Positions 44,511 through 45,831 of a stretch of DNA of 64,000 bases are shown piece after piece. Under the pieces are notes generated by a model. That model made no database searches and was not told the DNA's origin. It saw nothing but the letters and a program-made list of their open reading frames with translations. Within the stretch, counting starts at the first letter, position 1, and every line of letters begins with the position of its first letter. Source of the DNA: a virus. Where the stretch lies: IMG/VR virus record IMGVR_UViG_3300045988_095445; one strand, 5' to 3'. Both the position numbers and the translations under genes were made by a program.

Positions 44511-44556
44511 TCTTATATATATTATATAATAAAATTTTATATAAATCAAAACGCCG

Positions 44557-44611
44557 AATTGCCAAAATTTTGGGCAATTTTTGTTATATAAAATTGCCAA
44601 TTTTTTATATA
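44557..44611. repeat. palindromic recombinase-binding-like site TTGCCAAAATTTTGGGCAA plus an extra half-site, upstream of the recombinase gene
   Basis: A 19-bp imperfect palindrome is centred on AAAATTTT at 44559-44577. A second TTGCCAATTTTTT lies at 44594-44606. The same half-site motif recurs at 45735-45786. Confidence 0.4.
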
Positions 44612-44628
44612 TCTATGAGGTGATAAAG

Positions 44629-45252
44629 GTGTTATACGGATACGCACGAGTTAGTTCACGTGACCAAAATATTGACCGCCAAATTCTTGCTTTAACTGAA
44701 GCTGGGGTTAAAGAAGAAAATATCTTCATAGATAAACAGTCGGGCAAAGATTTTAATAGACCATCCTATTAGAAAATGATGGATACTGTGACTTCAGGAG
44801 ATATGATTCTCCTGAAGTCCATTGACAGATTAGGACGTAATTATTCTGAAATTCTTGAACAATGGAGTTTAATAACAAAGACAAAAAATGTAGATATAAA
44901 AGTTTTGGATATGCCATTATTAGATACATCATATTGCAAAGATATTATGGGTACTTTTATATCAGATCTAGTCTTACAAATTTTATCTTTCTAGGCTGAA
45001 CAAGAGAGAACCTATATAAAACAACGACAAGCTGAAGGAATTGCGGCAGCTAAATAGAAAGGAATAAAATTTGGTAGGCCAAGAAAAAATCTTCCAGATA
45101 ATTTCGATGAATTATATGAACGCTATCTACATAATGAACCAATTACTAGATTAGCGAAAGAATGTCAAGACATATCTGAAAGCACTCTTAGACTAAGAAT
45201 TTATGAGCGTTAGCAAAAAGATCGGTTAAACGGAAACCCGCAGGTCAAATAA
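44629..45252 (+). CDS. small serine recombinase (resolvase/DNA-invertase family, Hin/Gin-like)
   Basis: GTG start after GAGGTGA. It is 207 aa through 4 TAGs. The N-terminal catalytic motif is [16 protein letters not shown]. There is a C-terminal HTH. Confidence 0.75.
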
Positions 45253-45305
45253 AGTTAAACTATCTTCCTATTGTTTTATATATAATATAAAGGAGGAATA
45301 TAAAT

Positions 45306-45695
45306 ATGCCTGAAATTGTTATTCAAATATTCTAGCTTTGTATTCTTCCTCTGCTTGGTATTTTAACAAAATATCTCGTAGACTTCCTCTCTGCTAAACG
45401 AGATGAGTTAAATTCTAAGACAGAGAATGAAACAGCTTAGAAATACACCACTATGATATTTGATACTATTACCAAATGTGTAATAGCTACAAATCAGACT
45501 TATGTTAATAGCTTAAAGGAACAAGGTGCTTTTGATGCTGAGGCTCAAAAAATTGCATTTGATAAGACTATGGAATCTGTATTAGAGATCTTATCATCTG
45601 ATGCAAAACAATATATTATTGAGACAACTGGCGACTTAAATACTTACCTAACTAATCTCATTGAAGCCGCGGTTAATGAAAATAGAGCATCATGA
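45306..45695 (+). CDS. holin, LL-H family
   Basis: SD AAAGGAGGAATATAA then ATG at 45306. It is 129 aa with an N-terminal TM helix. The region KYLVDFL...VIATNQTYVNSLKEQGAFDAEAQKIAFDKT matches the Holin_LLH pattern. There are 2 in-frame TAGs. Confidence 0.6.
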
Positions 45696-45734
45696 TATAA
45701 TGGGGTTACTATGCCCCATTATATTTTTATACTA

Positions 45735-45786
45735 AAATTGGCAAAAATTTTGGCAAAATAGTAAAATTATATTTGCCAAAATTTTA
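45735..45786. repeat. cluster of TTGCCAAAATTTT-type half-sites (two inverted, one direct) downstream of the holin gene
   Basis: AAATTGGCAAAAATTTTGGCAAAATAG lies at 45735-45761. TTGCCAAAATTTTA lies at 45773-45786. These are inverted relative to the 44557-44580 site. Confidence 0.4.
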
Positions 45787-45831
45787 TATAATAATGAAAG
45801 GCCAAGGGAATATTTTAAAGGAGGTAAAACT

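Follow-up and report, generated by a model that had tools for sequence, protein, structure and literature searches.

The recombinase-holin locus

A 64,000-nucleotide stretch of viral DNA (IMG/VR record IMGVR_UViG_3300045988_095445; the window, by which we mean this whole stretch) carries, between tail-fibre-like genes and an operon of unknown function, a gene pair encoding a small serine recombinase (REC) and a holin, with an array of three short heptamers on either side of the pair. The initial annotation of this locus had proposed three possible roles for the repeats, namely the sites of a Gin/Cin-like inversion switch, a res-like site for the resolution of a plasmid-like replicon, or autoregulatory operators bound by the helix-turn-helix (HTH) domain of the recombinase. 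The features on which the analysis turns are the following:

44559..44600, plus strand: left array, with heptamers H1 TTGCCAA (44559-65), H2 TGGGCAA (44571-77) and H3 TTGCCAA (44594-600)
44617..44622, plus strand: Shine-Dalgarno sequence GAGGTG of REC, 6 nt ahead of its GTG start, conserved in all sub-clades
44629..45252, plus strand: REC, small serine recombinase of 207 aa (Pfam Resolvase, 1.1e-30; PHROG_125, labelled 'DNA invertase', 1.4e-52)
45306..45695, plus strand: holin of 129 aa, with two in-frame TAG codons (PHROG_13712, 2.9e-33)
45694..45725, plus strand: intrinsic-terminator-like hairpin ATGGGGTTACTATGCCCCAT with a T-rich tail, after the holin
45738..45779, plus strand: right array, with heptamers H1 TTGGCAA (45738-44), H2 TTGGCAA (45750-56) and H3 TTGCCAA (45773-79)
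45781..45801, plus strand: promoter-like/leader element ATTTTATATAATAATGAAAGG of the downstream operon, unique in the window
45832..48821, plus strand: downstream operon g141, g77, g301, g140, g204 and g108, function unknown (PHROG and Pfam matches)

Long open reading frames (ORFs; at least 100 codons, summed over the six frames) add up to 30.9 kb under the standard code and to 76.5 kb when TAG is taken as sense, in which case a clean and densely packed gene map is obtained with 0 genes terminating in TAG. Because TAG is a sense codon, the ORF listing made with table 11 was unusable and a purpose-written ORF caller was substituted for it. With its four in-frame TAG codons (aa 48, 122, 143 and 195), read as Gln, REC would not be an ORF at all if TAG were not a sense codon throughout the genome. 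Codons 48 and 122 fall in aligned columns that hold Gln in at least 90% of 11 homologues, and position 143 is Q in several of them; from this alignment we therefore conclude that TAG is a sense codon read as Gln across the whole window (1-64000). The number of TAG codons in the REC mRNA is 3-7 in two sub-clades and 0 in three others, and the REC gene of the window belongs to the late, heavily recoded gene block. Elsewhere in the window, a 2908-aa gene (15781..24507) has 100 in-frame TAGs and the replication-side genes have few. No tRNA genes, suppressor or other, were found in the 64-kb window.

A Sin-like recombinase

Compared with all PDB sequences, REC has its top match in Sin (2r0q; 125.6 bits, E 1.6e-35) over residues 2-191, the C-terminal domain included, followed by the gamma-delta/Tn3 resolvases (82-86 bits) and by Gin (4m6f and 3uj3, 59-60 bits). 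The catalytic domain is intact, a C-terminal HTH is present, and no change in the catalytic motifs YARVSS and SIDRLGR is seen among 11 homologues of 71-100% identity. The profile matches given above bear out the initial annotation as far as a 207-aa recombinase of the resolvase/invertase family is concerned, and it is the assignment to the Hin/Gin type that has to be corrected, the protein being closer to Sin (125 bits) and to gamma-delta (86) than to Gin (60). Judged by these alignments, REC is a resolvase-type small serine recombinase of the Sin/beta-like kind and, because all catalytic residues are kept, it probably still recombines DNA.

Other assignments were considered. A large serine integrase (400-700 aa, with recombinase and zinc-ribbon domains) is ruled out by the length of 207 aa, and matches of REC to the NCBIfam models XisF and Ccr are limited to the catalytic domain and fall far under the cut-off. 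Neither a transposase nor transposon ends were found beside REC, the neighbours of which are, in all relatives, tail-fibre-like, holin and unknown phage genes, and this speaks against a recombinase carried with a transposon.

The nearest known counterparts are Sin/resH of Staphylococcus aureus plasmids and beta/six of pSM19035, likewise systems of a small serine recombinase in a Firmicutes setting. REC resembles Sin in its full-length similarity, including the longer C-terminal domain, and in the putative sites directly upstream of its gene. With the Tn3/gamma-delta resolvases it shares the fold and the catalytic motifs (86 bits), unlike them in the absence of a transposase or transposon ends nearby and in the sequence and geometry of the sites.

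Two heptamer arrays in direct orientation

Spacing, rather than heptamer abundance, is what makes the arrays non-random. The bare heptamer TTGCCAA is not enriched in the window (13 found, 9.9 expected), whereas the heptamers start at 0, +12 and +35 in both clusters, and the corresponding pattern TTGSCAA-N5-TKGGCAA-N16-TTGCCAA has 2 matches in the window, the two arrays alone, and 0 in 100 shuffles. In 2.9 million IMG/VR contigs this triad occurs in the present phage clade plus four unrelated contigs and nowhere else; the four (L013, L019, L020 and L025) were set aside, the pattern being there a coding 12-bp tandem repeat. The initial annotation had allowed that the motif might prove to be a common promoter element found genome-wide, which is not the case; the full triad is present at two sites alone in the window, and there are two sites of the pattern per genome of ~100-148 kb. 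An exact 13-mer, TTGCCAAAATTTT, has 3 copies in the 64 kb (44559, plus strand; 45744-56, minus strand; 45773, plus strand), all flanking the recombinase-holin pair.

The repeats first noticed at the locus, that is a palindrome at 44559-77, an extra half-site at 44594 and three copies after the holin, are all in place, the palindrome (TTGCCAAAATTTTGGGCAA at 44559-44577) being imperfect by one extra G. The inverted orientation attributed to two of the post-holin copies is only apparent, as TTGNCAA is self-palindromic and the clusters are direct repeats, with 43 of 62 ungapped positions identical (69%) at an offset of 1179 bp. This 62-bp direct alignment spans just before H1 to ...TTTTATATA..ATGA, and a partial copy of the ATTTTATATAATAATGAAAGG leader element at 44601-44618, after the left array, is part of the direct repeat. 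There is also a 26-nt inverted match of 88% (44559-84 versus 45731-56), without 12+2+12 dyad symmetry, which arises because TTGNCAA is its own reverse complement bar the central base and because the AAAATTTT spacer is palindromic; the "orientation" of a heptamer thus hangs on one central base.

Within each array, H2-N16-H3 forms a 30-bp inverted repeat, and 30 bp is the size covered by one dimer of a small serine recombinase. H1 is a TTGNCA box at the position of a -35: on the left it is followed after 19 bp by the -10-like hexamer TTATAT (44584-89), and on the right after 18 bp by TAAAAT (45762-67), which was also picked up independently by a promoter scan. In most arrays a TAnAAT-like hexamer lies 18-19 bp past H1, inside the N16 spacer. 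The stretch 44573-44598 had been flagged as a possible intrinsic terminator, a role that was rejected for the array since one sub-clade of relatives (L009/L041) keeps the heptamers and not the stem and T-run. The interval between the two clusters is taken up by the recombinase, the holin 53 bp after it and the strong terminator-like hairpin, and no opposite-strand alternative genes were found inside the recombinase-holin segment.

Order of the locus and arrays across relatives

Relatives of REC, of 74-100% identity, were drawn from IMG/VR, Logan, ENA and NCBI assemblies (42 loci), and 13 further metagenome contigs were gathered via the leader of the downstream operon, giving a comparison set of 55 related contigs; five REC-bearing sub-clades (that of the window, L009/L041, L030, L044 and L026/L043) were examined in detail. 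Human-gut samples are the source of these relatives, which are stand-alone contigs of ~96-148 kb; one of them was binned with a Eubacterium metagenome-assembled genome (MAG), and a search for an integrated prophage in bacterial genomes returned only one stand-alone contig of 147.8 kb, in a MAG, and none integrated. The window has a GC content of 33% and strong GGAGG-type ribosome-binding sites before its genes, and from these sites a Firmicutes-type host is indicated. DNA and protein searches of the GenBank phage collection gave no close relative, every match being <60% identical, and the phAss-1 paper, on TAG-recoded gut phages of ~136 kb, mentions no recombinase (PMC10607447).

In 42 of the 42 loci and in 12 of the 13 metagenome contigs (54/55) the genes run REC, holin, g141 on one strand, with g77, g301 and g140 next in line wherever the contig reaches that far, and in the related contigs the holin is always 3' of REC on the same strand. 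Neither an inverted segment, for which the related phages were checked, nor a left/right hybrid array joining the tail gene to g141 was found in any of them (0/55). The one exception to the common order, L210 (ENA OYCW01000541.1), has lost the left array and ~180 codons of REC and has an intact holin and right array; one end-point of the deletion lies in the tail-fibre-like ORF and the other in REC, neither of them at the arrays. REC is therefore dispensable and the deletion is not site-specific. On the reverse complement of this contig (~3900-4660), the tail-fibre-like ORF is joined to the final ~25 codons of REC.

The left array is found directly 5' of REC in all five sub-clades, and in four of them (REC identity 76-100%) it keeps the 0/+12/+35 geometry, with heptamers that vary and spacers that diverge:

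Window: TTGCCAA / TGGGCAA / TTGCCAA
L009/L041: TTGGCAA / TGGGCAA / TTGCCAA
L030: TTGTCAA / TGGGCAG / TTGCCAA
L044: TTACCAA / TTGGCAA / TTGCCAA
L026/L043 (REC 74% identical): TTCCCAA / TTGGGAA / no third heptamer

Since H1 has C, G or T as its central base, depending on the relative, the left "palindrome" and the right "inverted" copies are not conserved properties. The L026/L043 sub-clade has the heptamers TTCCCAA/TTGGGAA in both arrays and is the sole one with SKSTLRLR, not SESTLRLR, in the presumed recognition helix of REC.

The right array consists of 2-5 heptamers in 12-bp phase; it is conserved in 4/5 sub-clades, and its H3 is often missing. In the window and in L044 its last direct heptamer lies 31 bp upstream of a clear -10-like hexamer, within a conserved TTTTCATATAATAATGAAAGG element before g141. 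In L030, where an opposite-strand gene of 72 aa is inserted past the holin terminator, the right array stays with the g141 promoter: it travels with the promoter of the downstream operon, not with the holin.

More distant relatives that have no REC (L121-L127, found via g140) keep g77, g301, g140, g204 and g108, and in these seven loci the holin was detected in 5/7, g141 in 6/7 and REC in 0/7. In the three that were inspected (L121, L126 and L127) the holin lies directly against the tail gene upstream of it, the heptamer arrays are absent, and the TTTTCATATAAC promoter-like element before g141 is retained, least clearly in L126. L121-L123 have another repeat family, TTGTGAA/TTGAGAA, at the same promoter, upstream of TTTTCATATAAC, and the interval between holin and g141 (~2650-3700) contains in these three a divergent gene of 235 aa with a weak receiver-domain match (E 4.7e-4, below the Pfam cut-off). 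This gene may be an alternative regulator of the g141 promoter; a LytTR-type regulator was suspected, for which the sub-threshold receiver-domain match was the only result and a weak lead.

Proposed binding sites at two promoters

The reading that we prefer, and to which we would give about an even chance, is that REC is a Sin/beta-like recombinase with the arrays as its cognate sites, overlapping its own promoter region and that of the next operon. The left array would overlap the promoter of the REC-holin pair and the right array would lie, in the same polarity, upstream of the promoter of the 45832..48821 operon. With H1 at the -35 position and a -10-like hexamer in the 16-bp spacer, the H2/H3 inverted repeat would bracket the -10, so that REC bound to H2/H3, with H1 in 12-bp phase as an aid, would block or remodel the promoter. 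The outcome would be an autoregulation of REC and holin, to which the control of the next operon would be coupled. A comparable regulation of the recombinase gene, from sites that overlap its promoter, is found with Tn3 resolvase and beta recombinase, and in Tn3 the enzyme acts as its own repressor.

Each REC sub-clade examined has the left array and 4/5 have the right one, and the REC-less relatives inspected have neither; from this co-occurrence, and from the one case of co-variation between heptamers and recognition helix, we infer that REC is the protein that binds the arrays. We likewise infer the regulatory effect and any resolution activity. Among the three roles first proposed for the repeats, that of autoregulatory operators for the HTH is the best supported, also by the place of the left array directly before REC and by the right array staying with the g141 promoter, and it is extended now to a second promoter, with the binding of REC as its presumptive part. 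The DNA between the arrays does not look like a phase-variable element, whether invertible or excisable, and a recombination product fitting the data would be one that leaves the gene order intact, such as the resolution of genome multimers at the left array. A res-like role of this kind for the left cluster alone is possible; as its product is identical to the monomer, multimer resolution leaves no trace in assemblies.

Several points weigh against binding of REC at two promoters. The promoter calls are consensus matches in DNA of 33% GC, in which 18 promoter-like sites compare with 20 expected per 4 kb. In L009/L041 the right array is degenerate, its middle heptamer alone surviving, and the left array is kept; control of a second promoter is therefore not universal. 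The covariation of recognition helix and heptamers is known from one sub-clade alone, and another HTH protein of the phage could be the binder of the arrays. Catalytic residues would be superfluous for a purely regulatory protein, and REC keeps them. The site is also unlike that of Sin, three half-sites in 42 bp against the four half-sites of the 86-bp resH with its HU-binding spacer, and the residues F52 and R54 of the regulatory tetramer interface of Sin (PMC2764113) have, according to the alignment, T and T as their equivalents in REC.

In a more far-reaching version, which we consider unlikely, this clade of ~140-kb TAG-recoded gut phages would use a catalytically intact serine recombinase as its dedicated transcription factor for the lysis-proximal late region. 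REC would control its own (holin) operon and the next from the paired arrays, in place of the different regulator and repeat array at the same promoter of the REC-less relatives, and in the sub-clades whose mRNA has 3-7 TAGs its synthesis, and so the timing of the switch, would depend on the change of code.

Competing explanations

The same modest standing is given to pure multimer resolution, according to which the left array would be a compact res for dimers of a circular, plasmid-like or replicating genome and the right array a look-alike or a relic. Sin, the closest characterised relative, is a plasmid multimer resolvase with its res 5' of its own gene (PMC2764113), and the array of REC, with its inverted pair H2/H3 (30 bp) and its phased repeats H1/H2, recalls site I and the direct-repeat site II of Sin (PMC2428073). 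Conservation of the catalytic residues fits this role, comparative genomics would not see the product, and the relatives are stand-alone contigs (about 137-148 kb) that are never seen integrated. However, the right array is conserved in 4/5 sub-clades and co-varies with the left one, which does not suit a relic; the four TAGs of REC and its place in the late recoded block are a poor fit with plasmid-prophage upkeep in a standard-code host; the window showed no partition genes, in a search that was not exhaustive; and a natural deletion of REC exists (L210). As for the sites, comparison with the central 20-bp crossover cores of Sin and beta, tabulated in PMC3985619 (Table 1), shows that neither the crossover-flanking GT..AC nor a central dinucleotide is kept in the 20-bp cores of H2-N16-H3. 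Unlike in Sin and beta, a second array is located 1.18 kb off at another promoter, and the replicon is a phage of ~140 kb, not a plasmid.

Slightly less credit is due to the view that the arrays are promoter or operator elements of some other factor, such as a host or phage sigma factor or a regulator, and that REC is merely adjacent. It would account for the -35-like TTGNCA and for the position of the arrays in intergenic promoter regions, and it agrees with the different repeat array and the divergent gene (weak receiver-domain match) at the same promoter in the REC-less L121-L123. Against it, arrays and REC are present or absent strictly together across lineages, H2 and H3 have no properly spaced -10, and two sites per ~100-148-kb genome are too few for a sigma-factor motif.

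Excision between the directly repeated arrays, by which the REC-holin cassette, in a programmed deletion or because it is mobile, would be lost in the form of a 1.18-kb circle, appears improbable. REC is resolvase-like, and arrays in direct repeat are the geometry that resolvases prefer (PMC2764113), but the hybrid array with a tail gene-g141 join is found in 0 contigs and the end-points of the L210 deletion are elsewhere. If H2-N16-H3 were the crossover site, its central dinucleotides on the left and right would be TA/AA in the window, TA/CA in L041, AA/GA in L030 and AA/AA in L044. Productive exchange by small serine recombinases needs identical central dinucleotides, so that the difference in 3/4 sub-clades would block it, and a capability for left-by-right exchange is therefore not conserved. 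In addition, the right array often lacks its H3; the holin is ancestral at this place in REC-less relatives, so that the arrays are not boundaries of an inserted element; and loss of the holin would be harmful to the phage.

Inversion of the ~1.2-kb REC-holin segment in a Hin/Gin-like switch that would toggle the expression of the holin or of the downstream genes, to which the 26-nt inverted match (88%; 44559-84/45731-56), the position of REC within the bracketed segment, like hin, and the 'DNA invertase' label of PHROG_125 might point, is very improbable, because that match follows from TTGNCAA and AAAATTTT being palindromic and lacks 12+2+12 dyad symmetry, the longer 62-bp alignment is direct, REC is Sin-like (125 bits, against 60 for Gin), 54 of the 55 related contigs are colinear and 0 inverted, the "orientation" given by the central base of H1 (C, G or T by sub-clade) is not conserved, and the right cluster is degenerate in L009/L041. 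The locus is like Hin/hix, Gin/gix, Cin and Pin in having a small serine recombinase by phage tail-fibre genes and short AT-rich repeats on both sides; it is unlike them in the weaker similarity of the protein (Gin 60 bits), in the lack of 12+2+12 dyad-symmetric 26-bp sites and of opposite-strand alternative tail-fibre exons, and in the absence of orientation polymorphism among the 55 contigs. Firmicutes-type hosts, such as the one indicated here, are not expected to encode Fis.

Neighbouring genes

Directly upstream, the left array is adjoined by a variable cassette:

43206..44510, plus strand: tail-fibre-like cassette of three ORFs (212, 154 and 82 aa, TAG = Gln; PHROG tail fibre, 1.1e-10, for the 212-aa ORF)

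The cassette is absent from L009/L010, replaced in L005/L006/L008 and represented by other genes in L026 and L030. The region 43197-44555, between the promoter region of the target gene of a diversity-generating retroelement (DGR) and the left array, is hypervariable even when the relatives are otherwise close, with different tail-fibre-like genes of 480-627 aa in some, and the cassette is probably a host-range module swapped at gene boundaries. An invertible tail-fibre segment left of REC was also considered, and inverted repeats were sought over 41-46 kb. The best of them (44169-98 versus 45251-80; 30 nt, of which 26/30 complementary, 87%) has one arm in the 154-aa tail gene (44169-44198) and the other in the REC-holin spacer (45251-45280), and was judged incidental because the first arm is restricted to genomes with this tail-gene allele and is absent in many close relatives.

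For the gene downstream of REC, which had been called an LL-H holin, the designation as a holin stands (PHROG_13712, 2.9e-33) and the LL-H family does not, as no Pfam holin family, LL-H included, matches the ORF at E <= 0.01. The terminator-like hairpin after the holin is present in all sub-clades, with sequences that differ. In the downstream operon, g141, g77, g301 and g140 are syntenic in all full-length relatives, and g204 and g108 were also found in those loci in which they were looked for. At the end of the operon, g108 (48495-48821) encodes an ImmA/IrrE-like metallopeptidase (Peptidase_M78, 5.4e-6; HExxH motif). Metallopeptidases of this type are usually tied to repressor cleavage in temperate elements. 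Further on, between the minus-strand genes 48836..49267 and 49340..49819, a stretch of ~57 bp (49268-49323) is self-reverse-complementary at ~90% in all relatives (minus-strand BLAST matches) and is probably a hairpin or terminator.

The DGR itself is complete and is found at 38881-42919 on the minus strand. It comprises a reverse transcriptase (38881..40098; RVT_1, 1.3e-16), a template repeat (TR, 40405-40507) and a variable repeat (VR, 41128-41230), which lies at the C-terminus of the target gene 41114..42919 (Big_3 and DUF6273). Twelve of the 13 TR/VR mismatches are at TR adenines, and a small ORF (40538..41032) without a family match occupies the usual position of the Avd accessory gene.

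Implications

The feature is real and conserved, and largely ordinary; what is unusual in it is the compactness of the site and the second site at a neighbouring promoter. For annotation it carries a caution, in that a 'DNA invertase' label, tail-fibre genes and seemingly inverted repeats do not amount to evidence of a host-range switch; in the present case the motif is its own palindrome and comparison of the relatives gives a single fixed orientation. Those who collect orthogonal small serine recombinases with their targets may take an interest in the 42-bp site, which is compact and has a TTGNCAA core. Should the regulatory reading hold, REC would be a phage example of a resolvase-type recombinase that serves as transcription factor for a promoter not its own, and its place beside the holin, among late genes that depend on stop-codon suppression, would offer a small and testable link between code switching and the timing of lysis.

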